A stretch of DNA of 63,973 nt, filler included, from Circinaria calcarea (GCA_051942165.1; 3 parts of 3 records of this genome joined end to end with filler, not necessarily neighbours in it); one strand, 5' to 3'; shown: positions 1,290-26,425, numbered from the whole stretch's first letter. Numbers and translations: made by a program. The notes: generated by a model not told the origin, from the sequence alone.

Positions 1290-4200
1290 AATCTTCGCCC
1301 TGCTGTCTCATTATCTTTTTAAAGGCAACAGACTTCGTAAAGGCGTGATATGCTTGCCGTCCAATATAATAAAGGGGTTTTGGAAGGAGCGGCCTATTGT
1401 AAAGCTACGGCGTCACTGTATTGTATCGATGAATGAGTGAGTTCTATTACAACTGCGTGTGTATGGTCTGCTATGCTGCGTGTGTAACGCAGCAGAAGAA
1501 TCTATCTATGTGTGTGGGCACGGGCGGAACAACGTCCGCCCGAGGATCTAACCGCAAAGGTTTGACACCTATCTTCGTATAGCGCAGTTTCACAAACAGG
1601 AGGCAATTAAGCGAAATTACCGAATAGAATAATATCGATGGTCAGGGAAAATCTGCCGAAGCCGCTTATCAATCCACGCCAATTGTGTTAAACCTATCAT
1701 AGATTTTTCATCTATAATCAGAAATCGACAATACTTTTAAGCTGGCTTGTAAAGCTGCCAGGGGGTTTTGTTGTAGCTGATCAAACTCCTTTCTAACAGG
1801 CAGTTTCAAGAGAGAATGCAATGTACAACCCTTAATGTTGTACGCAGCAACACCGGTAGGAGCACAACGTTGAACAGGGTCTGGAAGGTCTGCTTCCATA
1901 GCCCGATGCAGTAAATGCCGAAAAAGTAGATCAGTTAGATAAGACTTACCTGTTCCGGCCACCCCATCGCCATTTAGACCCAGCGGAGGTGGCCGATTCA
2001 GGGGTTCGGCGAGTTCATCTTCATACTACTTCATCACAGCATCGAAGGTCTTCCGCTGCTCCGCTTGGAGTGTATCTGGCGACAGTAATGCTCGAATATC
2101 TTCATCCGGCGGGTGTTCGATTTTGGCCGTTGCCAGAAATCCTTCCGGCGCTGCATATTGTTCATACTCCGCGGCATTGGCATTCCAATCGAAAGCCCTA
2201 TCCATATCACGTCCCCCTAGATCGTCCGGATCTTCTATTCTCGTACCGTCATTCGGCGCCCTTCTGCCGGCGAACTCCTCCCATGCCTGACGTTCCATAT
2301 GAGGCTCTCCTACATCCGATTGGTCCTCGAATTCATCCTCCTCAGAGTTATCTTCGGCTATAGGGTCCAGCGGGTCAGGGTCGTGTACAGGGCAACGGTT
2401 TTTACATAAGGTATAAGCTTCCCGATAGCTATCAACAGGTATAACACGGTTATCGGGACCTCGAAATTCTTCACGTAGATCTTTAATCTTCGTAAAAGGA
2501 TGGTGAAGCATAAGCTTAACCCGGCAGTAGTCTTCGTATTGCTCACCGGTTGGGTCTGCATCGTATAGCGGGAAGAGATTGATGATTCGAGGCGCAGCTC
2601 GTGGCCGGCGTTTCATTTTGGCGAAGTCAAAGTGCCGCAGCATATCCCATAGAGTTAGCCGTGGCCATTCCTGCATATTCCGGCCCATTGGCGTTCTATG
2701 GGTGATTTCCGGGCAACAACCTCTTCATTCTCAACCTCGAAACCAACGTTTTGCTCATTTGGCAGCCGAGCATCGAATGCTAAAACCGTTCGAGAGCCAT
2801 CTTGTAAGGGCAAGCCAAGCGTCAAATGGCATATCTCTTGGGCTGACCAATCCCGTTCGCTAATGAGGCTATTCATAAGCTTGGTGGTAATCGAGATAAG
2901 CGGATGAGTGGCGGAAGCGTGGCTCATCACGTTTTTCAGCATGGAGGTATACGTCGCCGACTTCGTTTCAGCTTTGCTGCAGTATTTGGCGATATATCGG
3001 AGCACTGCATCAGCACTAGTAGGAGGTGTCATATCTGTATTAGCCCCCCAAGCCATCGTACACAAAGGATTGTAGGAATTCAACAGCTCATCGTTTCTAA
3101 CCGGCTCGTAGAGAAAGTGCTTGCTATTCCGATCTGTACTAACGTATGCCTTTTCACTTAACTCCCGAGGGAATTTGAACCGGCACTTTGGTTCCGCATT
3201 CGCGCCAGAGCGTCCTCTCGGCTTCCTGAGGCAGTATCTAGTGGTGCAGACCGTGTGACGTTGAAACCGATTCAGAAGTGCTGTTAAATAATCCTTTGTA
3301 TTCGGCTGTTGGTCGAAAGGTAAACTGGAAGGATGTCTAGCGTCAGGACGTCGAGTCTGATCAGGATTGAAAGCCACGACTTTATCAGCCCAGTAAGCAG
3401 CGAATGCATCCTAGCTTTGATCGGTTCCCATATCCGGCTGAGGGGCGTCGTCGGACCAACCAAACCCATGTATATGACCACTACCCCTTGATTGCCATTC
3501 AAAGCGATACCAATGATCCTTAAGCCCGAACTTCGGCTTCAATACACGCTTGAAAAAAGAGCGGAATCGTCGATTTAGGTACTCCGCGGCGATATGCGGG
3601 TTTTTCTGCAGGTCAATCCTTGACTTCTTCAGCCTAGCCGTCTCGTCAGGGGTCGATTCTTGGTCATTGGCCCCTGGCATATGCTTCCGAAGGTCATGCC
3701 ATTGCAAATCGGCGGCGCTGAAGGTGAAAAAGAGGTTCGGACAACCTATATTTCGAACATAACTCTCGAGCTGACGACGTTTGCTGTTCCAGAACGGTCT
3801 CGTGCCTCGAAGCGTAGCTGCATGGCGGATGATTCTATCCACCAGATGGGTTTCATCATTGTCGTTCAATAGCTCTTTCAGTTCTTCGATAGTCAGGTTG
3901 TTCTCGGTCTGATTCTTCCTAGCAAAGAAAGAACCCTTTTTCCTTGCGGCATCACGCATTAGCCCGTTGAAAGCAACGTAGCGGAACCGTGGGTGCTGGG
4001 CAAACCGGCCATCTTCATACCGCATTAAATGTTGAATGTATTCCTCGTACCGAATAGTTCGTTGCCGGGGGACCTTGAAATCCGCCTGCCCATAGGGGAA
4101 AAGCGTAGGAAACGCCATACGCATTATAGGAATATCGTCCCATTCCGATATAGGGGTGGAGCGGAAATCCGGTGCTGTCAACGGTTGCGGTGCGAGATCC

Positions 4201-5701
4201 TGCCTCATACGTGCTGCCTCGGAATGCCTAGTAGTAAAATTCGGTACAACACCGGTCGTTTCAAGGTCTTGCTCGGGTTGACCATTGATTTCGGTGACGA
4301 TATCATTGATATCACTGATTTGGCCTTGATCGACGGCCTCAGACTGTTCTTCGATCTCCGGTATAAACCGCCGAACACTGCCATCCTCCGGAAGCCTGTT
4401 CAAAGCTTCATCATCGATAGTAATGTTCTGATAGTCCGGGTGATTCTGGCGTAGAAATCGTAGCCATGCCAGAATCGCTGAACGCCGAACCCGAAAGTCT
4501 CTTTCAAATTGGCGTTCGAGCAACGGCTGTTCCCCCTCGGCGGTGTTCCTAGAAGAAGGACGCAGAAGCACAACGTCAAGGTTGGCAGGCAGTAGGGGCA
4601 GGCGATCGTATAGCTTCATGGTATCCTGCATGAAATTGACCGTATGTCCGGAATACTTGTATTGATGCCCACGGACACGCCGAACCTGGACATGTACGTG
4701 AGCTCTGGCAATTAACATCTCTTCCGTCTGCGTCAGAATAGGCAAATGGGCGGGAACAGCACCCAATTCCATGTCATTTTCTCTGGAAATAAGCTTGACA
4801 CGATGCTCGGCTTGAGTGTTGTGCTGATCTTTGTTCTTATCTCTGTCTTTGCATCGATGGCAGACCCTGTCAGTGTCTAATTTCATGTCGAACCATTTTT
4901 CATGACAATGAGAGCAAACCTCCAGTTCCAATTGGTCCATATCATGGCGGAAATTCTCAGCCAGAATCCAGTCTACTGCAGGTATGGCTGGGGCAAAAGC
5001 GTCTGGATCCGCCAATCGTTGGGCTTCGGCAGCAGCTTCATCCAACTGTTCGTTGGCATCATTCAGCATTTGTTCGGCTTGAATAGCTGCAATCCGTGCG
5101 CGGTAACGTTGAGAAACACTCTGCTGATCACGGCATGTATCACACGTTGCATATTCTTCACCGTTCACAATGAACAAATGCCTTGGACGAGTATGATGAC
5201 CGTGTACACAGTATTTCATTTCCTCTTCCTCGTCACCACTATCAACAACGCAGTACACGCATATATTGGGTTCGCCAGCATGCCTAATCAAATCCTCCAA
5301 ACCACGCCGAACGCTGCACAAAGAGCAAACGAAGTAATGTCGAAGACCCCGGGGTGACTGCACCGCAGAGAGAGGATTTATAGAAAGAATACGCCGCAAT
5401 CGTTTCGGCGTTCTGCCAGATCGGGCGAGGAAGGCGAAAAAGGATGAGAGGTAGGATTGGGCTGGCGAGTAGGCCTTGTTGGCGTTGCAGGCAGCCGTGG
5501 TGGGTCAGGCGGAGGATTAGGTGGTAAGTTAGCTTCTTGAGAGGATGGTTGTGAGGGTGTATGGCCACGTTTTATCTGCATAGCTCTTCTTCGATTCTTT
5601 CGTTCTGCTGCCTCTTTGGCCTTGCGTTCCTCTTTCTGCTGTGGTGTTTCTTGACTATCTCTCTCCAGCCGGGCCTCTTTGCGACGTAGAGACCTAGCCA
5701 T
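1290..5701 (-). pseudogene. Helitron RepHel protein (N-terminal basic/Zn-finger region, DUF6570-like, Helitron_like_N, HUH endonuclease, PIF1 helicase), disrupted
   Basis: ORFs 5378-5701, 3411-5399, 2655-3377, 2026-2688 and 1708-1962. In-frame TAG stops at 3411-3413 and 2026-2028, frameshifts near 2690 and 1735, an LTR insertion at 1398-1567, and loss of recognisable helicase motifs below about 1290. Confidence 0.85.
1398..1567. mobile_element. Solo LTR (170 bp) inserted in the Helitron helicase
   Basis: TGTAAA...TTTGACA termini flanked by a perfect 5-bp direct repeat CCTAT (1393-1397, 1568-1572). Removing the insert and one TSD copy restores the helicase reading frame (LPPVCETALYEDRPLLPKPLYYIGRQAY). 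Confidence 0.8.
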
Positions 5702-6456: not shown

Positions 6457-7690
6457 ATGACCGACCTGGAAGTAGCCATTGAAATCGCACGAGAAGCTGT
6501 TCATGCAACTCCAGAAGATCATCCTGACCGGGCAGGACTGTTAAACAGTCTTGGAAATAGACTTCGAGACAGATACTTAAGAACGGGAGCGATGGCTGAC
6601 CTCGAAGAAGCCATTCAAACTGCGCGAGAAGCTGTTCATGCAACTCCAAAAGATCATCCTAGCCGGGCAGGACGGTTAAACAATCTTGGAATTAGAATTC
6701 GAGACAGATACTTAAGAACGGGAGCGATGGCTGACCTGGAAGAAGCCATTCCAATTGCGCGAGAAGCTGTTCATGCAACTCCAGAAGATCATCCTGACCG
6801 GGCAGGACAATTACACAATCTTGGAGCTCAACTTGGAGACAGATACTCAAGAACGGGAGCGATGGCTGACCTGGAAGAAGCTATCCAAATTACGCGAGAA
6901 GCTGTTCATGCAACTCCAGAAGATCATCCTGACCGGGCAGGACGGTTAAACAATCTTGGAGCTAGACTTCGAGACAGATACTCAAGAACGGGAGCGATGG
7001 CTGACCTGGAAGAAGCCATTGAAATTGCGCGAAAAGCTGTTCATGCAACTCCAAAAGATCATCCTGACCGGGCAAGACATTTAAACAATCTTGGAGTTAT
7101 ATTTGGAGACAGATACTTAAGAACGGGAGCGATGGCTGACCTGGAAGAAGCCATTGAAATTGCGCGAAAAGCTGTTCATGCAACTCCAGAAGATCATCCT
7201 GGCCGGGCAGGATATTTGTACAATCTTGGAAATAGATTTGGAGACAGATACTTAAGAACGGGAGCGATGGCTGACCTGGAAGAAGCCATTGAAATTGCGC
7301 GAGAAGCTGTGTATGCAACTCCAGAAGATCATTTTGACCGGGCAAAATTATTAAATAGTCTTGGAGCTAGACTTGGAGACAAATACTCAAGAACGGGAGC
7401 GATGGCTGATCTGGAAGAAGCCATTGAAATTGCGCAAGAAGCTGTTCATACAACTCCAGAAGATCATCCTGACCGGGCAGGACTGTTGAACAATCTTGGA
7501 AATAGACTTGGAGACAGATACTTAAAAACGGGAGCGGTGGCTGACCTGGAAAAGGCCATTCAAATTGCGCGAGAAGCTGTTCATGCAACTCCAGAAGATT
7601 ATCCTGACCGGGCAAGACATTTAAACAATCTTGCAGCTAGACTTGGAGACAGATACTCAAGAACAGGAGCGATGGCTGACCTGGAAAAAG
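6457..7690 (+). repeat. Coding tandem array, 135-nt unit x9 plus a partial tenth
   Basis: Units start at 6457, 6592, 6727, 6862, 6997, 7132, 7267, 7402, 7537 and 7672, with very high nucleotide identity between them. Confidence 0.97.
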
Positions 7691-9474
7691 TTGTATTGTA
7701 TTATCAATCTGCTCTACACCAGTCGAACTCGCCCACCATCGCTCGCATATTAGCCGGCAAAGAGGTTCTTCGATTTTGTGTATTCACTTCTGACTGGCAA
7801 CAAGCTTATAAGGATTCAACTATTGCTGTTAATCTCATTCCAAAACTAGCATTACGATCACTAGAGAATTCCGATAAGCAGCATTTGCTCAGTATGGTAG
7901 TGGGCCTGGCCTGTAACCTAACTGCTGTAGCATTGCAAGTACAAGAAGCGCCGTCAGTTGCGGTAAAACTACTTGAGCAGGGACGCGGTGTACTGGCAAC
8001 ATCTCTCGAGGAAATACGGACGGATATACTCGATCTACAAGGAAGGCATCCAGAGCTAGCAGATCAATTTGTCAGCCTTCGGGACGAATTAGAGCCACCT
8101 GTCACGCGAAATAATACCCTTTTCACAGACGACAATCGCAAGTCTTCCTTGCAGGCGCGAGCAAGTCGGCGTTACGACGCAGGTAAAGAACTCGATAAGC
8201 TGATCTTCGACATTCGCAAACGACCTGGATTCAAGGACTTCTTGCTTCCTCCAAGTGAAAAAGAAATGCAGGCTGCTGCGAGGTGTGGCCCTATTGTCGT
8301 TATCAATGTCAGCGAGTACCGCTGCGATGCGCTACTCGTTGAGCAGCATCAGATACGGTCCCTGGCATTGCCCCATCTCAACAGCAAGGACATCGAGAAG
8401 AAGACACAGAGAGGCCGTCTCGGAAGTCGTGAAATCCTAGAATGGCTATGGGATGCTATTGCAAATCCGATCCTTGATGCTCTTGGATTCACCCAACCTC
8501 CGTCGGGCGAAAGCTGGCCACATGTATGGTGGATTCCTACGGGTCCCCTAAGCAAATTTCCTCTCCATGCGGCTGGGCGTCACGGCGAGGGCTCTACCCA
8601 AACGGTGCTCGATAGGGTCATGTCGTCGTACAGTTCGTCCATCAAGGCGATCATACATGGGCGCCGATCACGCATTCCAGAACCTACGCAATCGGTCCAA
8701 CCCCAGGCGCTCCTTGTCGCTATGAGGGATACTCCGGGACATCGTACGCTTCCTTCTGCAACGGATGAGGTAGCAATAGTACACCATCTTTACAAATCGA
8801 TGGCATTGGATCCTGTCGAGCCGGGGCGGCATAAACAAGATATCGTGTCGCAGTTACCGAATTGCAAGATATTCCACTTTGCTGGTCATGGCCGTACGCA
8901 CGAGTCCGATCCTTCCCAGAGCGATCTACTCCTAGAGGACTGGGAGAGTGACCGCCTCACGGTGGCTAATCTTCTAGAAATGAATCTCCGTGAACGGTCT
9001 CCATTTCTCGCCTACCTCTCGGCTTGCGGGACCGGTCGAATCAATGATGAGAGGTTCGTTGACGAGAGTATCCATCTAATCAGTGCATGTCAGCTGGCTG
9101 GATTTCGGCACGTTATTGGCACTTTGTGGGAGGTCGATGATGACCTTTGCAAAGATATGGCGAAAATCACGTACGAAGAAATAAAGGAAGGGATAAAGGA
9201 CGGGCGCATGACGGATGAATCGGTTTGTCGGGGGCTCCATAAAGCTACCAGGGAGCTTCGAGACCGTTGGTTAAGTGCGCCAGCGAAAACCAAACGCGGA
9301 CGCCGATCGGTCAGAGAAGCAATCACATTTTGGGCACAAAATGAGACCGAGACCCGGGGTGCATGTGATAGAGATGAGAGATATGGTAAATTGCCCAGAG
9401 ACGCTGATTTAGATAGTGAAGATGAAGAGACAGGGCCGACACACTGGGTTCCATACGTTCATTTTGGGGTGTGA
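6457..9474 (+). CDS. TPR-repeat CHAT-domain (caspase/separase-like) protease, 1005 aa, intronless
   Basis: Nine 45-aa TPR-like repeats, then a CHAT domain with PHVWWIPTGPLSKFPLHAAG, catalytic His (FHFAGHG), catalytic Cys (LAYLSACGTG), AGFRHVIGTLWEV and terminal WVPYVHFGV. Confidence 0.92.
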   Translation: MTDLEVAIEIAREAVHATPEDHPDRAGLLNSLGNRLRDRYLRTGAMADLEEAIQTAREAVHATPKDHPSRAGRLNNLGIRIRDRYLRTGAMADLEEAIPIAREAVHATPEDHPDRAGQLHNLGAQLGDRYSRTGAMADLEEAIQITREAVHATPEDHPDRAGRLNNLGARLRDRYSRTGAMADLEEAIEIARKAVHATPKDHPDRARHLNNLGVIFGDRYLRTGAMADLEEAIEIARKAVHATPEDHPGRAGYLYNLGNRFGDRYLRTGAMADLEEAIEIAREAVYATPEDHFDRAKLLNSLGARLGDKYSRTGAMADLEEAIEIAQEAVHTTPEDHPDRAGLLNNLGNRLGDRYLKTGAVADLEKAIQIAREAVHATPEDYPDRARHLNNLAARLGDRYSRTGAMADLEKVVLYYQSALHQSNSPTIARILAGKEVLRFCVFTSDWQQAYKDSTIAVNLIPKLALRSLENSDKQHLLSMVVGLACNLTAVALQVQEAPSVAVKLLEQGRGVLATSLEEIRTDILDLQGRHPELADQFVSLRDELEPPVTRNNTLFTDDNRKSSLQARASRRYDAGKELDKLIFDIRKRPGFKDFLLPPSEKEMQAAARCGPIVVINVSEYRCDALLVEQHQIRSLALPHLNSKDIEKKTQRGRLGSREILEWLWDAIANPILDALGFTQPPSGESWPHVWWIPTGPLSKFPLHAAGRHGEGSTQTVLDRVMSSYSSSIKAIIHGRRSRIPEPTQSVQPQALLVAMRDTPGHRTLPSATDEVAIVHHLYKSMALDPVEPGRHKQDIVSQLPNCKIFHFAGHGRTHESDPSQSDLLLEDWESDRLTVANLLEMNLRERSPFLAYLSACGTGRINDERFVDESIHLISACQLAGFRHVIGTLWEVDDDLCKDMAKITYEEIKEGIKDGRMTDESVCRGLHKATRELRDRWLSAPAKTKRGRRSVREAITFWAQNETETRGACDRDERYGKLPRDADLDSEDEETGPTHWVPYVHFGV

Positions 9475-9517
9475 TTTATCACCAAACTTGCTGCAGATCA
9501 ATTAATTTAGTAGCACG

Positions 9518-11535
9518 CTATAAGTCTATGTCCACGACATCTATATAAGTGCGAATAAAAAAGTTCAGTACAGCCCAGTCTTCCGATGAAGAACCACCGC
9601 CTTCTCGGCCGGGCCTAGTAATCGAGCTCTTCATGAATGATTTACCGAATTTTGGTAGCTCTAATAAGTCGAAGGAAGTCGGCTGAGCAGTGACGAAGAC
9701 CTCTATTATATCATCGCACTGACGATGCCCTTTCTCACATAATTCACGTGGGACCGTCATGGTGAGCTTCATGCTGGATATCACTGTAGAGCCTTGGCCA
9801 TCTTTTCCTGCAGGAATGACTTTGTGATTCGCGCGAAGAAGGTTCTTTACTTGCCAATGGGGTCCCATATCATAGATGTGGAGATAGAGATCCTTGCTTC
9901 CCTTATTTTCTATCACCAGCTTGGGCCTGAGATGTTTTTCCTCGTTGTGTTTCACTTTTACCAAAGACTCCGGCTGAAAGATCCTCCCGGAACAGTCGAT
10001 GATTTGAATGCTAAAAGACTCTCGAAAGGGAATTGCTAGTTCTTTGTTGGCTAGGTTCTTGGCCATTTTGAACTTCACCAAGTGCTCCATTAGATCATAA
10101 ATAAAGCTTGCGTTCGTCTGACCAAGCGTCATGGTTGGGAGATTGACAACCTTTGAGTCAAATTCATCGAGGACTTCATATTCGTTTCACTGTTCAATCG
10201 GATATGAAATGAAAACAGTTCTTCGTCTCTGCCAGCACTGGCACCTAATGACCGTCCTTGCAGAGCCATTAGCCACTCATTCTGATATGGAAGACTGGAA
10301 TCGAGTCTGATCAGAAAGGTCGAAAGGGAACAGCGATTAAGCACCGTTGCGATCCACCCTGTTCGGACTCGGACAGACGTGTCCAGTAGTTCGACATCCG
10401 AAACCAGAGCTCTGGCTTGGGTAACCTTTGCAAGAATGGGGTCGCTTTTTGATCCTAAGTCACGCTCAGCAGAAGCCCAGGGATGCACGGTAAACTGATC
10501 GCCATCATAAATGCCATGCGCCTGGCCAGCTCCTATTTGAAGGCTACCGTCTAGCTTTTTGATGACTGAAACTGGTGCCGAACACATTCCCGGGCTGGCG
10601 GGTCCGAAGAAGGAGAGGGTTTTGTTCCCATACAAAATGGGATTCTGTTCATTTTTGCGTGCCTCCTGGGTCTCCTGGAACCTGGCACATAAGTGACGGT
10701 AGATATTCTGCCGGCTTTCGCGCACATCGCCGAGGTTTTGAAGGCTCCTCAGTAAAAACCAGGATAATACCCCGTGCCGCTGCCCTTCTTCATCCCAGAG
10801 CTCTTTTGCGATTTCCGTGGGTCCGCATGCCGTGAGGATGGTGTAGCCATCCGGATGGACTAGCCAGTTTGGCAGCATGGAAGCATTTCGGTAAACCGGG
10901 CAACTGGCTTTGGTTTTGAGGCTTGATCCAGGGGCCAAACCATATGCTGCAGGAACCTTAGGGTCGTATCTGAGATACCGAGCTGAGGAATCGTCGCGCA
11001 TGACACTTCCAGAAAAGCAGCAGTCCAAAACAAGTGTTACCGTCAATTCTTTACGCACCATATCTCCTATCAAACTCGCCAACTCCAAGCCTTCGAGATA
11101 ACGAGGGTTGGTCCCCGTCGCTCCTTCGAGCAGCACCAGCGCTAGATCTCCCGTGGAGCTATTCGGAATCCTAGTGCCGTGTCCAGAATAGTGAATATAG
11201 ATGAAGTCGCCAGCTTTCGCTCGAGACGACATCTCCTTGAGACTAGAGGTTACATTGCCGTATGTTGGCCACAACTCTGGGCTCTCGTCCGGGCCAGACG
11301 ATTCCGACACTTGGGCTGGATGAGAAGAGTCCAATCTCTCGGCCTGGTGAGAAGAATTCAAGTCATTGGTTGAGGGCGCTGTGAATATTCGAATTTGAGG
11401 AGGTTTCGACATCCCTCTTAGGTATTTTCGGATGTCTCGAACATCTCGCACGCAGCCTTTCAAAGGTTTTTCTGGATAAGCATTAATGCCGATCAAAATC
11501 GCATAATGCGTGGCGTCAGCGTGCTGGTCGTCCAT
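9518..11535 (-). CDS. Caspase-like peptidase C14 domain protein with long C-terminal extension (about 672 aa if the frameshift near 10185 is corrected; may be a pseudogene)
   Basis: HYAILIGINAY..LKGCVRDV, catalytic His (YIHYSGHG), catalytic Cys (VLDCCFSG), LTACGPTEIAKE...HGVLSWFL. ORF 9518-10132 continues the protein after a single-base frame change (..NEYEVLDEFDSKVVNLPTMTLGQ..). Confidence 0.85.
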
Positions 11536-12399
11536 TGCTGTCCGAGTGAGTTCAGCCTCAGGGTGCTTAGGCAAGCGCAGTGCCTGACGGAGGAGCAACT
11601 GCAAGATTAAAGGGCAATGCTAAGCAGCTGTAGCAGCTTACTAACAGAAAACAGAGCCTCCAAAGAAGACGACTGAGCCGAATGATAACCGCGCCTGCAA
11701 AAGGCATCAAGATTCGGTAAGCCCTGCAGGGCGCGGGAAAAGGTACCATAGATTGATTGGGCATTAATTTGTGACAAGGCTACGAACACGAATTCCATAA
11801 ACTTGGGACAGGCTGCAAACTTCCGAAGCCTCGTCGTGTCACCACAGTCGACACGAACCATTAAGCTGCTTCCAATTCTTTCTCCTCGATCTCGTCGCCG
11901 TTCTTGACGGCTTGACCGCTTTCGAGACTAAGAGTGTATACTGCTGCAGAAGGCACAGTCGCAATGACAAAGGGTCCTTCGCGAGATCCACCACCAGAAA
12001 CGCGCAAATACACGTAATCTCCGACCGTAAATCTGCTTATCTGCGAGCTGTCTTAACGCGGTACGCCCTCTTTTAGGCTGGAGCTTGCGAACCTTCATAT
12101 ACGGTATAACCTGAGAGCGGCCGTCATCATCACAGAAGGTAATCTTAGGGCTTTGATCTCTGGTACCAGACGTGAATAACACGATCGACTGCACAAAGCT
12201 AGCATTGCTTACCCTTTAGATTCGGTCATTTTTTTTTAAATTTCCGCTCAGACAGTTTGGCCGCCGTGGATATCAGTTGAGTGACCAATAGTAACCTACT
12301 AAATCATCGTCCATGATAGTGCGGTCTGGAGGGTTCTTTATATACTTCCGGATACCTGGATTTGCTGCCTAAATGCCTTCTAAGACGCCTTATTCCTTC

Positions 12400-12445
12400 T
12401 GCATTTGGGCGTGTGATGCGCATGCATTTGGGCGTGTGATGTGCA
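12400..12445. repeat. 23-bp tandem duplication TGCATTTGGGCGTGTGATG(C/T)GCA in the divergent intergenic region
   Basis: Two adjacent copies with one mismatch. Confidence 0.85.
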
Positions 12446-12637
12446 TGCATGTGGCTTTGCTGCTGTACGAACAGGGTATGCCAGTTACTATCATTCTATC
12501 TCTTGTTGCCTTGATCCTGCGCCCACCTGGCTCGAAATGTGTTATATAAACCCAATTGATAGACCAGAACTCAGTCCCACTTATCTCGTCATGTCTCGCT
12601 GCTCTTTATTTGAAAGATTGCCCTCCAAAAGATTCAG

Positions 12638-13718
12638 ATGGAGTTTTTCAAACCGTGTCTTCCAATTCGGAAACCCTCAGAACCCCTTCTTACAGGTGAA
12701 AAGGAGACGAGACAAAGTACCGATACCTCTTTTTCTAGGAATTGCTGTACTGACCGTACCGAGTCGAGGCTTACATTCCTGGATATCCCCGTTACACGGC
12801 ACTCCTTTCAGCTCATACACCCTTCTTCTTGTGCCGCCGTTTCAACAGGCTCCGCGCTCGTCTCCTTCTATTGAAGCAGGACAAACTGTCTGTTCTTGAG
12901 CAGAGGCTTGACCAGATTGACGAGCAGGAACCTTTTCGTCTCTTCCTCGGCAAGAGCCGGTGCGATGCGAATGCGGACCGATGGTCTCTTTTGTCAGAAA
13001 TTGAATCTTGTCTGGCTGACTACGGTATATTGAAGAGATAAAAGTGAAGTGTTTAAATACTAACGAAATGTAGACCAATTTACGGAAAGGACTCATCGAA
13101 TGCTGGGTTGGGACCCCGCAAAGCCAAGAGATGTACGGAGCCTGCAAAACTGGTTGAATGGCACGGGTTGTCTCGCCAGAGAAGAAGCAGCATACCTCGC
13201 ACATGGCAAAGAGCTGATTTCTTTGGCTCCATCTGGTGATAGTGCTCTGCTGCATCTTGAAGTTTGGGTAGAAGAAAAGTTGATCCGTTTCTATCGAGGG
13301 TTCCGAAAAGTAAGAGAACTCTTACTTGTTAGAGCAAGCTAACAACCGAACGCAGAGCCGTCATTATAATGTCTCTATCGATGCGAACGTGTACCTGTAT
13401 TCTGGCTCTTTGATTAAGCGGTCTGCCAGAGTATTATTGTTATTCTTGATAACTTTCCTGTTGCTAATGCCAGTCGTCATTTGCAACATTATTAGCACTG
13501 TTTCAATTCGGATAATTATTATCATGCTATCCACGATTTCCTATCTGTTCATCCTCTCTGGATTAACCCGATCAAAGACGATAGAGTTGATCCTCGCCGG
13601 AGCAACGTGAGAAATTCCGTTTAGATATGATTAGTAACTGCCAGCTAATGCGACTAATATTAGATATGCTACAGTTCTCGTCGTTTTTATCTCTGGTACC
13701 CGTGGAATTTCGACCTAG
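12638..13718 (+). CDS. DUF6594-like fungal membrane protein (5 exons)
   Basis: Spliced product reads EAYIPGYPRYTALL..FFLCRRFNRLRARLLLLKQDKLSVLEQRLDQID..SLQNWL.. followed by three hydrophobic segments ending AGATYATVLVVFISG. Proposed introns: 12717-12763, 13025-13073, 13310-13355, 13607-13663. Confidence 0.8.
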
Positions 13719-13826: not shown

Positions 13827-15232
13827 TGTTGACAGGGTCGATCATAATTATTTAGTACCACCCTAGTCTGGTTCATAGCAATAACGAAACGATGAAAAGT
13901 GGTGATTAGGACTCCGTGTCACGAGTTCTCCGTGAGACATGGCTGCTCTCCTGAAAATTTCAACATTCCCCCCTGTGTCGAAAAGCATGTAATGGCTTCC
14001 CAAATGCGCAATTCTTATCTTTAAGACTACGATCTACTAGGTGATGTTATAATCGTTCACTGTCGAAGGCCTTTTCTGTTCTGCTTAAAGCGCGCCTACA
14101 CGAAACGTCTATTATTGCGACCGTCTTAGCTCCTTGGTCTCAGGTCGATTCCCTGTTGCGTCTCGAGAAGGACCTGCACCAATTTTAGCAGTACCTGATG
14201 GTCAGAGACCAAGTAGCTAATGCGTGAAATCTCCATATCCACACGCTAACACTTTCGCTCGCGGTTCCCGATCGAGGTCAAAAGCTTCCATGGCAGGCGG
14301 TCGCGTGTCCCCTCGGCAAAGGAGCTTGATATGCATAAGAACCGAGATAGGTCTGTCCAGTTCCTTTCATCCTAACTAAATAAGTGGAAGAGTTGGTATT
14401 GTTGATCTATCGCTTGCGCTCTGATGTATGTAACATATGCGTCCTACACATATGATACACAAAATTTCACCCTCCCAGCTGCAGCCTGGGCATCTTGGGT
14501 GTAATCCTGGGGACTTGAAATACTTATCCTAGATCTCCCTTGCTCGTGATTGAGTTTTTTCATCCATCTTTAGTTGTAGTCTAATACAGCACCACATCTT
14601 GATGGCTTCGGTAATCAGTCTCTCATCATGCAGCTCAAGAGTCACCTTGATTGCAGAGAGGAATAGATTGCTGTATGCCTTCCTGTTCGAGGTAGGGTTT
14701 CATTGCAATGAACTCACCCCCTCCGTCGCTCCGCCGTTTGGCGCTGGCGAAGCCGTATTGGTTTCGAACCATTGGAACGAATATCTTGACCTCTGCGAGG
14801 GCTTGACTCTTCTTAGCCATTGGTATGAACCATTGATGTCAACACCTGTAGCCATTGTAGCTAGCTTCCGTATGTCAGCTGCATTGAAATGACTCAGTCG
14901 ATGGTGCCATAGCTCCAAATTCGGCTTGATAGCCGTCTTGAAGCTGGCATGATTCAGGATTTCTTCAACCATATATCGTGTGGCGTGTGCTTTGCTCAAC
15001 GTCACACAGTAGAGATTGCCTGATTGTGCACCTTCTAGTGCAACCTCGCAGTCATCCAGCAAACGTAGTTATCCATTCTTTCCAAGAAAGCTATACCCTT
15101 TTGCTTCGAAGCTTCCAAGTGATAACAGGTTGCTTTCGAGCTCAGGGCAACAGTCGACCTCCTGATCGACGCCGTCGATTTGGGCGTGTAATGTGATGGT
15201 TCCGAAGCCAGAAGCTCTGATCTTAGAGCCAT
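13827..15232 (-). mobile_element. Truncated, degenerate Ty1/Copia LTR retrotransposon (GAG-pre-integrase/integrase fragments, PPT and putative 3' LTR)
   Basis: GNLYCV...LELWHHRLSHFN (GAG-pre-integrase) and RRSDGGGEF...LEQEGI (rve). On the minus strand a PPT (GGGGGGAA, 13973-13966) is immediately followed by a 139-bp TGTTGA...TCAACA segment (13827-13965). Confidence 0.7.
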
Positions 15233-15349
15233 CTGCGAGGTAGATGTCCTCGTTGCTTTAGATGGATGGTGTGAAATAATGGACGGTAATACAGGGTGGA
15301 ATAGGCTGTATTGGCTATGGTAACTACCAGTCTATGTGTATGGACTTCA

Positions 15350-19085: not shown

Positions 19086-19177
19086 AATTTGCTCACTATT
19101 TATCTCCTCTACACCACACGTCAGCCTAGATCTTCTAACCTTCAAGATTATCAAGAACGAATCGTATCACACCAGAC

Positions 19178-22100
19178 ATGGCCTCTGAAGACGCGAAGTC
19201 CGACGACACGAAAGGAAAGAAGACTACGAGGACAGACCCTCCCCCAGAGATTGCCGAATACAGCACCGAATGGTACGATTGGTGGTTGGAACATTCTCCA
19301 AAGACTTGGCCAGAATGGCTTTCGAGAGATGGCTTGGGTCTCACCGCCAACTTGCTGAAGAATATCAAGAGCCGGGCAACAGGTCTCTTGACAGAAGAGG
19401 TTGCGGGCAAAAAATTGAAGGGCCACACTGCGCAGCTAGAGTTGAAGGCGGCCGACGACGAACTGGAGAAGGACTTCGGCAGCAGAGTCAAGGAGTTGAG
19501 GCCGTGGGTCACGCATGGCTTCAGACAGAAATGTTGGAGGGCCTTTACGACCCATCAGAAAGCCATGAGAACAAGACCTAATTCCAACCTATCGAAACTG
19601 TCCAGTACCAAGCCAATATATAGGCACAGCGATGATCAAAAGCCATCAGAAAAAGCATCCTCAAGCCATTTACCTGCGAAGATCGAAGGACCCAGATACT
19701 CGAACCAGTCCAAGGATCCCCTGAACCAGCCTACGACCTTTTCAAAACCTCGCGCACGCTCCAACTCATTTCCCCGTAGAAGAGCATTGCCTAAAGAAGT
19801 CCACGTCGAAGGCAGCTACTACGAATGGCCCTCTTGGAATGACACGCCTAACCGCGCCCCTGTGGTGCAAAAAAAGGGAAAAAGATCCTCGGTGGCCGCA
19901 GACCTCGACAGCTACAAAGACGATGAATCAAGGGAAACCGCACTAAGGTTCCACCTGCGTTGGAGTTTCGAAAACAAGAGGAGGAAGCTGATAGTGGAAG
20001 AAGAACAACAATATGGTACCACGGGAAGAACTAACATGATGCCTGAGCCAACAAGTAGCGAGCTAAACGAAGAAAGACAACAGCACGAACTAGTTGCAGT
20101 GAGCCAAAAGATGCAAGAGACTACGGATTTGACGGATGAAGAAAAATTGATTTTAGACGGCGTAGCGGAAGAAGAAGAGGTAGACGCGGAGACGTTGTAA
20201 GTCGTTATCAGCCCGAAAAAGACAGTGCGTGCTAAAATACACCAAAGGATGCAGTCCTTGCTCAACGGCACTAAATGTGAGCAGTGCGACCCACGACAAT
20301 GGAAGTTAACTGTCGATTTTTGGGGCTGGACGGAGGCAACCGAGAAGAGGATGCAAATGAGCCCGACCGCCGCCTTCAAGTTACCAGGGATGAAGTCAGC
20401 ACTCCGCAGTACTCAAATCCATGCTATCACGTGGATGTTGTACCAAGGCGCAGGTCTTTGTGGAGGTGGGTTCTTATGTGACCGAATGGGATTCGGAAAG
20501 GTTTGCTACCTATTCAGTATCATTACCTTCAAGACTCACACAATTGCAGACGATCGTTATCCTCGGCAAGATGAGAGTGGAATGGTTAATCGCGAAGGCA
20601 TGCATGGACGTGATCGCCACCGAAGACTCCGAAGGTCATAATGGTCACGCCCCACCCCAAGCAAGGAAAGACGTACGATACGCAAGGACATTACCGCAGT
20701 GCACGCACTACAGAAAACACGTAGTGCCTTGTCCTTGCTCTTCAGCATCACCTACATGGTTGCAACGAGGACAGACCGGTGCTAATGTGATTTTCGCCTC
20801 CAAGACACTTATCGATGTTTGGGTGCAAAATTGGCGCGAACATAATATGGGTACGAATGATGAAATGGTTTTGTTAATAGGGCATGAGACAAAGGCGAAG
20901 GGGTTTGAGAATTTTGGACGGAAACACGCGAAACTCCTTGTAACAAATAAAAAAGGAAGAAGTACATGGTTCCAGAAGAAGTTTGTGATCCTAACCACTC
21001 ATGAGTCCTATAATACCCACGTCATGAAATACTTCCAAGGGCTTAAGAAAAAGGAGGACGTTGATTTAAATACGATACCTCGCAATACTTCATCGGACTA
21101 CGACAGAATGGTTAAAAAATACGAAGAAGATATGCTCTGCCCGTTCAAGCCATCCAACACCTACTCAGATGAATTCCACAAAATGCACGCGGAGGGTAGA
21201 GGTTTGCCAAATCGTTTGAAGGCAATGCAGACGAGGACGTGGTCACCGAAAGTTTGGGGGCTGTCAGGGACGCCATTTAAAGACGGCCCGGGCGGGTTAA
21301 GAGGATATCTTGATGTCATGTATCGAAAGCAATGGGACACCGACGAGAAGTACATGCATCTAACTCCCACGGCGCTCGAGACTCTGCAAAAGAATATAGA
21401 CGCTGCAATCAAGGAAGCCAACACGCACCAGATCGTCGAATTGGGCCAGGTTTTCGAGTTGAGAGTATTACAAAGTTGCATGATCCGGAGGAATGAAAAT
21501 TCCGAGTGGTTTGGCAAGCCCGCACTGCCATTGCCCCCGGTCACCGTCCACGAGATCAAAACGCCCATCTCCATAGAGTTCAAGGAGTCGGTCGCGGAAC
21601 TGAATGCGGAAAGGCTACAAAAAATGCATAAGTCGATGAACAAGTTAAACGGCAAGCAGAAACGTAGCACCACTCTCTCGACTCTACCGTCCCTGGCGAC
21701 CTTTATCGAGCACTCAAGGGCACTGAGACATATCGCTGTCTGGCCCTACTTAATAGAGATGCTGCGGACGGAGTCAGTAACCCTTACTCTAGAGGACTTC
21801 CGAAAACCGAAGGACGCCCACTCCACTTGGAAAAACGCTTATGCTACGAACATCGGCACCCTCATGAAAACTTCTCCACGATTCAAAGGAGTAGTAAGGA
21901 CTATTAAGTCGTTGCCCAAGGATAAGGAAGGCAAAGAACGCAAGGTGGCCATATATTCAGATAACGCCGTAAGCGCAGGCATTGCATACGAGGTACTTAA
22001 TGCAGGAACTCCTATCCTCTGTTGATGCGTGACTCTTCTCGCTAATATACGCAGGCGTTTGAAAAACTGTGGCCAGGAAAGACAGCCTTCTTCAAAAGCG

Positions 22101-22459
22101 CAACGACAAATAAAGTCCGAACCAAGCTACGAGCGTGGTTCCAAGAGGAGTTAGATGAGGACGGCGAGTTGTTATACGCTCATCCTCCGAGATTCTGGAT
22201 AGGAACCACTGGAGTGGGAGCGGAAGGTCTGGACCTGCAGAAAGCCAGTGTCATTATGTTACTGGAGCCATTCCTCGATCCTCGAAATGAGCAGCAGGTG
22301 ATCGGAAGAGCTTGGCGGGGAGGCCAGGTGAATAACGTCCTTGTGTACAAGTTCTACAGTCCGGACGATGACACAGAAAAGGCCGTGAGGAATAAAGCAG
22401 ATAGAAGGGCCTTGTTGGAAGCATCAACTCACACCAAATTGGTGGAGGAAATTGATTAA
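19178..22459 (+). CDS. Divergent SNF2-family (SF2) ATPase/helicase, 4 exons
   Basis: LRSTQIHAITWM..GGFLCDRMGFGK|T (motif I), YSDEFH (II), WGLSGTPF (III), CMIRR, GAEGLDLQKAS..LLEP...NEQQVIGRAWRGGQ (V/VI). GT-AG introns at 20197-20247, 20501-20549 and 21993-22054 keep the frame open. Confidence 0.85.
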
Positions 22460-23873: not shown

Positions 23874-26425
23874 TCATGCCAGCAACCCAAACAGCAATGT
23901 TGTCCTCCTCCAGTACTCCGCCACCGCCGTGTTGACCCTCGCCCTCGACTCCACCGGCAAGCCCGGATGATGCTGCAGCCGTGCGTGCCGGAGCCGAGCA
24001 AAGGCATCCGTAGTCCCGGCGTGGTCGGCTTTCCCGACGACGAGGAGAGTGGCATGGTCGAGGTAGGCCAGATCAAACGCCTCTTGGATCTGGCAATCTT
24101 CTCGCTCCGCCGAGGGGGAGGGGGATGGGAAGGGGGATGGAGAGGAGGACTCGGGAGATGGCGGCGTTTGGCCATTGGGTAGATGATCGGGGGGCGTGGG
24201 CTGGGAATGATGATCATCATCATCATCAGGACCGTCATTACCGTCGGCGGCGGCAGGAGAGTCGCCCACTGAATGGGCGTTGCTCGGGGCGGAAAATACC
24301 TCGACTAGCGCTCCTCGGAGCAAGACTTTCAGGTGCCCGACGGCTGGCGGACTCCAGATATCCCGGCCCGCGTGCAGCATCTCCTTGACCAGCACGTGCA
24401 AGAGTCTAAAGGCCCAGCATGAGGGCATGGTGGGAAGTTCGGGGGTGCCTTCCCACAGCGCCCTCTGAGGTAGTCTATCACGTTTCATGGCCTTTGCGAT
24501 TCTGCCTCGGCTTTTGGGGAGGGAGGTTTGAATGACTGAAGTGGCGATAATATGTTGCAGGGTTTGGATAGAGGAGGGGCTGATATTGGGGATTTCCATA
24601 CTTGGAGGTATGCGCTGGTTGAACTCCCGCAGGATGCGGAGGAGAAAGACGGATTTGAGGGCTCCATCTCGGTCTTTTGTGAGGTTCGCCGCCATCTGGT
24701 CAATGGTCGTTCGCATAGTGGAAAGAGCTTCAGTGACTGCGCTTGCTAGTGCATCACTCAGCGTTTGTGGGTCAGTCTCGCTGAGTAAGGTGTTTCTCTG
24801 GTCAAAGAAATCGTCGTCCTCGTCGACATCATCCGGATCTTCCTCCCATCTCAGTTTCCGCAAGCCCTGTATGAGGGTTTCGAAAGCGTGGACGGTGTCT
24901 AGCCACGTTTGGCAACCTTGCAGTATTTCCTTGATCTGATCGTTACTTCCGTATACTCTAGTCCGAAGAGCCTCTATGAAAGGTCGAGCACCGTTTGAAG
25001 TATCCATATATATTACAGAATCGTCAAACATAAAGGGAGAGACACCTGAAACCCCAGGTTGCCATTCATGAAGCGTACGAGTCAAAGTTGAAGTGACTTG
25101 CGACAGTATGCTACATCGGTCTGCAATGAGGCAAGTGAGGCGGGTAGTGAAGGTCTCACGAAGGCTGTTAAGGACCTGTGGTCGATCGATCCCGGCGGCT
25201 TGGCTATGACTTGAGAACCAAAGCTCAATAGTTCTTCTTCGTAATTGAACAATAAAGTTGGGATCATCCATCGATCCAAGCAAATCGTGAATAATATCTC
25301 GATACTTCCCCAGCGTCGTGGAAGCCCATTGAGTCAGTTGCTGGTTGGCAGTTTCCACCTGCAAATCATCGTGTCGTATATAGGGTGTAAAGTTCTTGAT
25401 ATCTTCTCCAATCCATTCGTCGTGCACATCGTGATCCATCTCAACAATCGAGCGTACATCGGGACTGTTGAAGAATGGCGCAGCTTTCAGGTCCGATAAT
25501 GCGTCGGAGAGCTGGCGGGGAAAGATGGCCTGCGTGTCTTGAAGAGTACGAATCCATAGCTTCAGTGCCTGTAGCACGTTCCCTCCACCATCATCTCGCT
25601 TTTGCATATGAGCAAAAATAGCCTCAGATCGAATACGATGAAAGTGCCGAAGGATATCCGTGGTCGAAGAGCTGTTGGCAATGGAGTAAGCACACATAGC
25701 ATCCACAAGAGATGTACTCTCAATTAACAAGGTCTTGAATCGTCTGTCGATGCTCGCCAGTAGTTTCTGCCGTAGCCTCGCTAATCTCGTCCTTATAGCC
25801 TCGACGTAAGTATGTGTCTTCTGGTTCTCCGAGATTTTCTTGTGTAGTAATCTTGAGATCACCAGGACCTTGGCTGCTACCAACACTGATCCACCTTTTC
25901 TCAGCAGCCTGGAAATTACCTCTGGGCATTTCCGAAGGACGGCCAGTTGGGACGCGAACCTGTAATGCTCCCTATCTGCCACGATTCGTATCAGTCTGAC
26001 CATTCCATAAACTGAGCTGCCTAGGTCGACCACAGCACGCACCTCTCATTCTGGATTGCCCTTCCAACAAGCGCAGATTCGAACCACTCTTTTCCAGTAG
26101 CCTCATGTTGCATTTCCTTCCCACATCTCCCAAGTATGTCTCCACTTCGTGCATCTGCCCGTCCATTGCGATGATTGTTTCTGCAGTCCCCAGCAGCTCT
26201 CGGTAGCTGGCACTATCAGAAAGAGAGAGAGGAAGATCAGCATGACATTCAGGCGCATGTGGCCAAGGTAGACTGAACATACCCAACTAGCGTCCTTAAC
26301 TTTTCTCTGTTCCCAGCAATGTCATTGCGAAGCTGCTGTTCCATACGCCGTACAGTAGGGACAGGATATTGAAAGGCATCTTCCCAGGACGAGAAGGTTT
26401 TTGGGTCAGGAGCTTCAACCGCCAT
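23874..26425 (-). CDS. COG1: Conserved oligomeric Golgi complex subunit 1 (Vps51/Vps67 domain)
   Basis: N-terminus MAVEAPDPKTFSSWEDAFQYPVPTVRRMEQQLR..REKLRTLVG|ASYRELLGTAETII; C-terminus EYWRRTTLLFGLLA; two 5' introns. Confidence 0.85.

Follow-up and report, generated by a model that had tools for sequence, protein, structure and literature searches.

Here we describe a cluster of four genes in a stretch of 63,973 nucleotides from the lichen fungus Circinaria calcarea (GCA_051942165.1), which consists of three parts of this genome joined end to end with filler and is called the window below. The cluster lies at positions 6457 to 13718 and encodes a TPR-CHAT protease, a metacaspase-like protease of family C14 (here simply the caspase), a protein of 87 amino acids and a membrane protein of the DUF6594 family (Table 1). 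The same four genes are kept together across the Pezizomycotina. An earlier interpretation of this DNA, made from the sequence alone (the sequence-only reading), had described a trio: two intronless genes for clan-CD cysteine proteases, both with intact His-Cys dyads, placed tail to tail with 43 nucleotides between their stop codons, and a DUF6594-like gene head to head with the caspase, all of it placed between a Helitron and a Copia remnant. Our analysis confirms both protease families, both His-Cys dyads and the spacing of the stop codons. The DUF6594-like gene is real and intact, and so are both transposon flanks real, the Copia remnant being short. The frame of the caspase is broken, however, and the head-to-head arrangement did not survive. 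The trio is in fact a quartet, because a conserved gene of three exons sits between the caspase and DUF6594.

Table 1. Features of the four-gene cluster and of its flanks, in positions of the window
Feature	Position	Strand	Details
TPR-CHAT protease gene	6457..9474	+	one exon, 1005 amino acids, intact; open reading frame plus Pfam TPR_10 (nine times), TPR-S and CHAT
TPR array	6463..7690	+	9 units (9.1 copies) of 135 nucleotides (45 amino acids); Tandem Repeats Finder; mean pairwise nucleotide identity 89%, no indels
CHAT (clan CD) protease domain, residues 659-961	8431..9339	+	Pfam PF12770, 114.1 bits against a cut-off of 24, E 1.1e-32
Spacer between convergent CHAT and caspase stop codons	9475..9517	.	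43 nucleotides; CHAT stop ends at 9474, caspase stop at 9518-9520
Metacaspase-like C14 protease gene, beta-rich C-terminal half	9518..11535	-	two frames here: 11535-10129, then 10186-9518
Frameshift site in the caspase gene	10185..10187	-	run of three A against the four required by the homologue frame (compared with P0002 and P0003)
Small gene, 87 amino acids	11861..12229	-	three exons, 12229-12213, 12159-12093, 12040-11861; introns of 53 and 52 nucleotides; no Pfam family
DUF6594 membrane-protein gene, 293 amino acids, intact	12638..13718	+	exons 12638-12716, 12764-13024, 13074-13309, 13356-13606, 13664-13718; stop 13716-13718
Helitron-type transposase remnant (context)	1711..5399	-	Helitron_like_N and DUF6570 at 3411-5399; PIF1-like helicase piece at 1711-2025
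Short Copia-type remnant (context)	14700..15257	-	gag_pre-integrase 14700-15068, E 3.9e-05, below cut-off; Pol_BBD 15069-15257, E 5e-07, above cut-off

The CHAT gene encodes a protein of repeats followed by a protease domain. TPR_10 is matched in nine stretches of the protein (E = 2.6e-52), and at E ≤ 0.01 Pfam gives TPR-type and CHAT families only. There is no NACHT or NB-ARC domain among these matches, which sets the protein apart from the fungal NOD-like receptors (NLRs, or STAND proteins). Pfam gives no match to a SAVED domain either; the sensor part is the TPR array. The catalytic residues His811 and Cys857 both stand in invariant columns of an alignment of 30 homologues, and 2932 relatives at E ≤ 1e-3 were found among the 8000 candidates scored. 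Differences between the TPR units of the window cluster at unit positions 26 and 32, where 58 pairwise differences are nonsynonymous and 2 silent (per-codon count). The neighboring CHAT genes of other loci carry between 2 and 16 TPR units each, units being detected in 27 of 29 genes. An array with near-identical units in variable number is repeat variation of the kind found in sensors.

The caspase gene is recognized by Peptidase_C14 (PF00656), which matches the open reading frame (ORF) 10129-11604 on the minus strand (E = 3.6e-16, 60 bits against a cut-off of 21.4). The caspase reading is carried on by another open frame of the same strand, at 9518-10132. A hidden Markov model (HMM) of the caspase family scores 628 and 254 bits on the window, at model positions 1-441 and 437-646. 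The motifs SGHG and DCCFSG are present in the window and invariant among 30 homologues. Homologues of about 650 amino acids run unbroken over the junction of the two frames (P0002, at 68% identity, P0003 and P0045). Related DNA was found in a single public run, X1 (Logan contigs, 85-99% alike, share 0.07), and no RNA sequencing run with related sequence was among the runs listed. A contig of X1 has a T inserted behind 10184, which is the base missing from the caspase (one contig, depth 2.9). Hence, the break is confined to this strain or to this assembly. In the public annotation, gene model P0001 (599 amino acids) masks the frameshift with an intron that removes about 70 residues, which are conserved and contiguous in all homologues compared.

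The N-terminal half of the caspase is predicted to have the metacaspase (caspase-hemoglobinase) fold. We modeled the intact homologue P0002 (predicted local distance difference test, pLDDT, 74.9; predicted template modeling score, pTM, 0.61) and compared residues 7-316 with known structures. The best match is Arabidopsis metacaspase 9 (Z = 25.5, root mean square deviation 3.1, 248 aligned; Foldseek E = 2e-12), followed by metacaspase 4 (Z = 25.1), GSU0716 (Z = 24.7) and MALT1 (Z = 20.6), with animal caspases lower at about Z 18. The window family shares the fold of its N-terminal 316 residues, as well as the His-Cys dyad, with the type II metacaspases (MC9 and MC4) and the bacterial orthocaspase-like GSU0716. 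Unlike the type II metacaspases, however, the window family has about 330 extra C-terminal residues, and it lies outside the canonical fungal type I metacaspases. In the model, the stretches after the catalytic Cys (residues 179-181 and 203-230) are loops of low confidence. The alignment of homologues has invariant arginines near these loops (R183, R189 and R219), which we infer to be candidate processing sites. Asp174, ahead of the Cys pair, is invariant in the family as well. In the DCC motif this Asp precedes the second Cys by two residues, a position shared with metacaspases, where it lines the basic-P1 pocket. Based on the fold matches and on this invariant Asp, the protease is predicted to cut, probably, after Arg or Lys.

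The C-terminal part of the caspase, about 330 residues, is beta-rich in the model. Its structural matches are weak, with Ig-like or beta-sandwich folds at about Z 8 for residues 508-660 and at Z 9.8 for residues 320-405. FlgT_C matched the C-terminal half in 4 of 30 members, also weakly (best E = 0.0038). Look-alikes of this part in the Atlas are bacterial "caspase family" proteins (template modeling score by query 0.68-0.73). Among the Atlas clusters that resemble it, DUF4384 has a share of 13-22%, which is a lead only.

The small gene was detected through a 63-residue piece of reading frame at 11864-12052 on the caspase strand, with tblastn matches in 35 of 80 related loci. In its splice model the first donor was set by hand to the canonical GT, which gives 87 amino acids against 86 in the scripted model. 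A search of 1.84 billion representatives yielded 98 relatives at E ≤ 1e-3, mostly of 50-90 amino acids and aligned over the C-terminal 60 residues. Annotated homologues have 83-92 amino acids and are called "hypothetical protein" in Colletotrichum, Xylaria, Imshaugia, Nemania, Trichoderma and Rhexocercosporidium. The relatives share an acidic stretch in the N-terminal tail, then Gly/x-Arg, and a conserved C-terminal core. At E ≤ 1, a given Pfam family is matched by at most 1 of 37 members, no sequence in the PDB matches below E 0.06, and feature matches in the Atlas are all under 0.9. Compared with the caspase family profile, the profile of the small protein reaches a probability of 3.3%. Predicted complexes of a caspase homologue with a small-protein homologue score 0.02 and 0.01, for chains that come from different organisms and were run with no alignments; these scores carry no weight on binding in either direction. 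The X1 relative has a 10-base insertion at window position 11996, in the last exon (one contig, depth 3.3), that would shift the frame and is either real or a contig error.

DUF6594 (PF20237) is recognized in three pieces in three frames, from 12754 to 13610 (E = 3.7e-18, 1.4e-09 and 8.8e-10). The exon pieces cover model positions 1-86, 94-155 and 155-232 of 238, with 66.7, 38.7 and 39.3 bits against a cut-off of 30. The four introns are GT-AG and measure 47, 49, 46 and 57 nucleotides, and after splicing the product reaches 482 bits with a subfamily HMM made from its closest relatives. The model of a homologue is all-helical with three long C-terminal helices, at low confidence (pLDDT 63.4, pTM 0.39). 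The DUF6594 proteins of the cluster belong to one particular subfamily, with a helical N-terminal part and three predicted C-terminal membrane helices. A wide structure search with this model gave generic helical hairpins only (best Z = 8.3), which is in the uninformative range for helical models.

Most cluster-type DUF6594 proteins have a short N-terminal extension before the Pfam domain, with a conserved Leu-Pro-x-Trp-x-Pro-Ser pattern (alignment A3, columns 38-60). This extension could be a docking or cleavage site. In Trizodia sp., protein P0268 (1103 amino acids) is annotated as DUF6594 (residues 22-264) followed by TPR and CHAT. If it were a natural fusion, it would link the DUF6594 and CHAT families. 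More likely it is a merge of two adjacent gene models, because its DUF6594 part breaks off precisely at the last exon border, so that the usual final exon is left out.

The conservation of the cluster was measured in metagenomes. We fetched 80 loci around caspase relatives, with up to 10 kb per side, and scanned their six-frame translations with HMMs from alignments of the caspase (A1), the CHAT region from residue 440 on (A2), DUF6594 (A3) and the small protein (A4). Dereplication at 90% nucleotide identity of the caspase gene left 56 groups, including the window. Family loci, defined by a caspase of at least 300 bits and counted with the window left out, number 45, many of them on short contigs. 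Within 10 kb, 30 of these have CHAT, 30 DUF6594 and 31 the small gene; all three are found in 22 loci and none in 6. For the 18 family loci flanked on each side by 5 kb or more (well-flanked loci), the counts are 14 for CHAT, 15 for DUF6594 and 14 for the small gene, with all three in 12 and none in 2. Loci with distant caspase matches only (n = 10) contain no CHAT, no DUF6594 and no small gene. Pfam upheld the CHAT, DUF6594 and C14 assignments in the four loci checked.

The genes around the cluster are unrelated from locus to locus, and only the four cluster genes recur together. No other ORF family is found in more than 2 of 46 representative loci in an all-against-all comparison of the remaining ORF pieces. 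Hence, the conserved linkage is not a case of extended synteny. The cluster of the caspase family persists down to about 28% caspase identity.

Annotated genomes give the same picture. In Clarireedia jacksonii the adjacent locus tags 005585, 005586 and 005587 are CHAT, caspase and DUF6594. Neighboring tags of cluster genes are also found in Monosporascus (000954 and 000955, including CHAT and C14) and in Trizodia (003400 and 003401), and in Cadophora DUF6594 is 014763 and the caspase 014765. Besides the window's own, at least 12 caspase/CHAT pairs lie on contigs of equal size among the 120 matches listed per search. For DUF6594, 9 of 69 matches lie on a contig equal in size to that of a listed caspase. 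There are counter-cases: in Hypoxylon crocopeplum and in a Mollisiaceae genome, the listed DUF6594 and caspase are on different contigs.

The sequence-only reading had expected co-localization within 10 kb in other fungi, and this is borne out in the metagenome loci and in the annotated genomes. It had also expected a conserved orientation, which is not what we see: gene order and orientation differ between loci. In the commonest arrangement (7 loci) CHAT is divergent from the caspase, followed by a convergent small gene and then DUF6594. Three loci that hold all four genes have the arrangement of the window (DUF6594, small gene, caspase, convergent CHAT), and several more truncated contigs show it too. 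Both the small gene and DUF6594 are present in 28 loci, and in 26 of these they are divergent neighbors. Measured from the caspase, the small gene lies at a median distance of 270 bp and DUF6594 at one of 1244 bp.

One could argue that the four genes are chance neighbors in a gene-poor, transposon-rich region, without any functional link. Such an argument has the local context on its side, namely a transposon remnant on either side and one gene that is broken. But 12 of the 18 well-flanked loci, and several annotated genomes from different classes, hold the same four families close together amid unrelated flanks. The juxtaposition of DUF6594, C14 and CHAT is far more frequent than expected by chance, and we regard chance as an extremely improbable explanation.

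Some loci hold more than one copy of the proteases. Within 20 kb, locus L059 (3263-14763) has two caspase-family and two CHAT genes, as have L032, L047 and L069, which suggests local duplication of the module. Other copies are decayed: L023 has a CHAT gene broken into five pieces, L001, L002 and L005 have remnants of CHAT next to an intact caspase, and the caspase is interrupted or internally deleted in L004, L018 and L034.

What could such a cluster do? The closest fungal relatives in kind are the HET-Q2-like/gasdermin clusters. A TPR-CHAT protein of Podospora anserina cleaves the gasdermin of the neighboring gene, and CHAT genes are found close to 19% of the gasdermin genes of fungi (Clave 2022, PMC8851545). 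As here, the protease of the Podospora pair Q2L-6 / Q1-6 shares a small fungal cluster with its presumed target, which is activated by proteolysis. Q2L-6 is given as 1005 residues, equal to the CHAT protein of the window, a likeness of size and domains. The clusters differ in their partners. Pfam finds no gasdermin in ORFs and ORF pieces of at least 75 amino acids in window positions 1-24500, where exons under 75 amino acids are only partly scanned. In the window, CHAT has as partners another clan-CD protease, a small protein and DUF6594.

A two-protease cascade has been described in bacteria. In Haliangium ochraceum, SAVED-CHAT cleaves and activates PCaspase, which then cuts a small inhibitor, a sigma factor and unrelated proteins, with an abortive phenotype (Steens 2023, 10.1101/2023.06.23.546230). 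That cluster (SAVED-CHAT, PCaspase, PCi and PCc-sigma) resembles ours in joining a sensor-CHAT protein and a C14 protease, with a small gene between. CHAT and C14 likewise share one conserved cluster in the fungi, both in the 14 of 18 well-flanked loci and by adjacent tags in Clarireedia and Monosporascus. There are differences. The Haliangium cluster is bacterial, and the same text gives it a SAVED sensor that binds cA3 and partners that are a sigma factor and a kinase, in contrast to the TPR array and membrane protein of the fungal cluster. PCi is described there as CI-2-like, whereas the fungal small protein is without detectable relative in Pfam or solved structures. The homology seen between the two clusters is that of the protease folds.

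Two further bacterial systems are similar in part. In type III-E CRISPR (Craspase), the TPR-CHAT protease Csx29 is reported, in the same source, to cleave the product of a dedicated neighboring gene after sensing, in a system with Csx30, Csx31 and CASP-sigma (10.1101/2023.06.23.546230). However, Craspase is RNA-guided and bacterial, has a single protease and acts on unrelated substrates. In type IV Thoeris, which joins a TIR component and a caspase-like protease, a caspase-family protease, called arginine-specific, is an immune executioner that degrades proteins of the cell (Rousset, 10.1101/2024.10.24.620036). As described there, it differs from our cluster in being bacterial, in its activation by a small molecule, and in having neither a CHAT protease nor a membrane partner.

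Our preferred reading, whose chances we judge to be evenly balanced, is that the cluster encodes a pathway of regulated proteolysis of the cell-death or defense type. We divide the roles into sensor/initiator, executioner, regulator and membrane effector because the cluster joins a Podospora-type sensor with the two-protease logic of Haliangium and a small protein. The TPR array would bind a trigger and thereby free the CHAT protease. The CHAT protease, as initiator, would then cut and activate the metacaspase-like protease, the executioner. The latter, probably cutting after Arg or Lys, would act on the small protein, a putative regulator or inhibitor, and on DUF6594. Finally, DUF6594 would damage the membrane or signal there, in the place that gasdermin takes in other fungal CHAT clusters. 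A more specific version of this proposal is a gasdermin-independent, pyroptosis-like cascade of two tiers in filamentous ascomycetes, with the TPR-CHAT protein as initiator, the metacaspase-like protease as executioner, the small protein as regulator and DUF6594 as membrane executioner. This version is tentative, and we would sooner expect it to fail in some part than to hold in full.

Several points weigh against the proposed pathway. First, the cascade, the order of cleavage and the role in cell death are carried over by analogy from the systems of Clave 2022 and Steens 2023. Second, toxicity of DUF6594 is a conjecture, and the model of the protein is poor (pLDDT 63). Third, unless the base was lost in assembly only, the caspase copy of the window may have no activity, and with its caspase frameshifted the cluster copy as a whole may be inactive. 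Fourth, the HMMs derive from sequences related to the genes of the window and therefore count only these subfamilies, and the fungal origin of the metagenome contigs is judged from introns and similarity. Fifth, CHAT is absent from 4 of the 18 well-flanked loci, and the caspase stands alone in 2 of the 18 (L003 and L008).

The gene trees belong to the same list. Of 24 loci with caspase, CHAT and DUF6594, 19 were used; L031 and L046 were dropped because no caspase sequence was extracted, L051 and L053 because CHAT is shorter than 450 amino acids, and L044 because DUF6594 is shorter than 200. The sequence-only reading had expected three congruent trees, and this is true for one pair. Those of the caspase and DUF6594 are congruent (Mantel r = 0.84, a value that none of 2000 permutations attains; 8 of 16 splits shared), but CHAT disagrees with both. 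For caspase and CHAT, r is 0.33 (reached by 20 of 2000 permutations; 2 of 16 splits shared), and for CHAT and DUF6594 it is 0.18 (278 of 2000; 2 of 16). The trees suggest that the caspase and DUF6594 are inherited as a unit, a congruence that shared species history alone could explain. Turnover of the CHAT gene is real. Because its tree is incongruent with both others, the CHAT sensor protease is exchangeable; it does not coevolve with the other two and is often swapped for a different member of its large family.

These data also bear on a different view of the cluster, in which the caspase, the small protein and DUF6594 form the functional core. The TPR-CHAT protein would then be an optional or exchangeable neighbor, either one among several upstream sensors or just one more gene of immune type drawn into the same fast-evolving region, without an obligatory cascade from CHAT to caspase. 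The incongruent CHAT trees speak for such a core, as do the CHAT remnants beside intact caspases. Loci without CHAT indicate that it may be optional, and two of the four well-flanked ones (L026 and L039) retain DUF6594 and the small gene. In addition, the CHAT neighbors split into a high-scoring (500-1000 bits) and a low-scoring group (about 300 bits). Nevertheless, 14 of 18 well-flanked loci have CHAT within 10 kb, yet no other family occurs in more than 2 of 46, and in most arrangements CHAT is directly adjacent, either convergent or divergent. Turnover of sensors is expected of immune systems and is no argument against a cascade. We consider a core without an obligatory CHAT step unlikely.

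Equally, the regulated proteolysis could be of a non-lethal kind. Its proteases would then process DUF6594 or the small protein in signaling, trafficking or a response to stress, akin to protease-gated sigma/anti-sigma modules, and have no role in cell death or non-self recognition. Metacaspases have roles other than cell death. Furthermore, the second protease of the bacterial analogue also cuts a sigma factor, none of the observations here points to toxicity, and the DUF6594 model has no known pore-forming fold. Other features of the cluster are at odds with this alternative: the TPR array is near-identical, variable in length and hypervariable at few sites, like the repeats of fungal immune-type proteins, and the sensor genes turn over. 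Broken copies are frequent, affecting the caspase in the window, L004, L018 and L034 and CHAT in L023, and the surroundings are unrelated and transposon-bearing. Because of the repeat variation, the sensor turnover, the broken copies and the transposon-bearing surroundings, dispensable conflict genes fit better than housekeeping genes. A purely non-lethal function is in our view improbable.

The conflict could also be of a selfish nature. In a toxin-antidote, incompatibility or drive element, DUF6594 would be the toxin and the small protein the antidote, which the proteases remove. In 26 of 28 loci the small gene has DUF6594 as its adjacent, divergent partner, which would suit a pair of this sort, as would the different genomic surroundings at every locus and the position of the window's cluster between transposon remnants. 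Against it stands that toxicity, drive and within-species polymorphism are without evidence here, and that retention of the cluster down to about 28% caspase identity points to long vertical inheritance. A selfish or allorecognition element is very unlikely to be the explanation.

If the proposed pathway is real, it would have several consequences. In the two-tier version, DUF6594, a large fungal family without literature, would be a new class of cell-death effector, and the cluster would be the first eukaryotic counterpart, encoded in a gene cluster, of the bacterial cascade from CHAT to caspase. Regulated cell death in fungi so far comprises gasdermin/protease pairs and HeLo/amyloid/NLR pairs; the cluster would add a third kind of module. 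It would also give a first functional handle on DUF6594 and on the unnamed family of about 85 amino acids, provide a compact four-gene system for an initiator-to-executioner step in a eukaryotic microbe, and bring the immune gene clusters of bacteria and fungi into closer parallel.

The cluster appears to be undescribed, and it is related in kind to clustered fungal protease-effector modules and to bacterial protease cascades. The papers and preprints searched, about 8.4 million for DUF6594, make no mention of this family or of a CHAT/C14/DUF6594 cluster, although supplements, for example the datasets of PMC8851545, could list such neighbors. In the relevant passages of two recent reviews (PMC12881547 and PMC10197012) CHAT appears only alongside gasdermins or NLRs.

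To the left of the cluster, in the Helitron-type element, Helitron_like_N, DUF6570 and the PIF1-like piece are in separate frames, so it is probably degenerate. The HMMs of the four families give no further match in the other 56 kb of the window. A 723-residue open frame at 23874-26045 (minus strand) has no Pfam match. On the plus strand, 19139-22459 contains open frames of 353, 146, 543 and 137 amino acids with a match to Helicase_C (E = 5.6e-07) and a weak hint of SNF2 (E = 0.0083), possibly a decayed or intron-split helicase gene. Metabolic and housekeeping-type genes are first recognizable near 26.9 kb.

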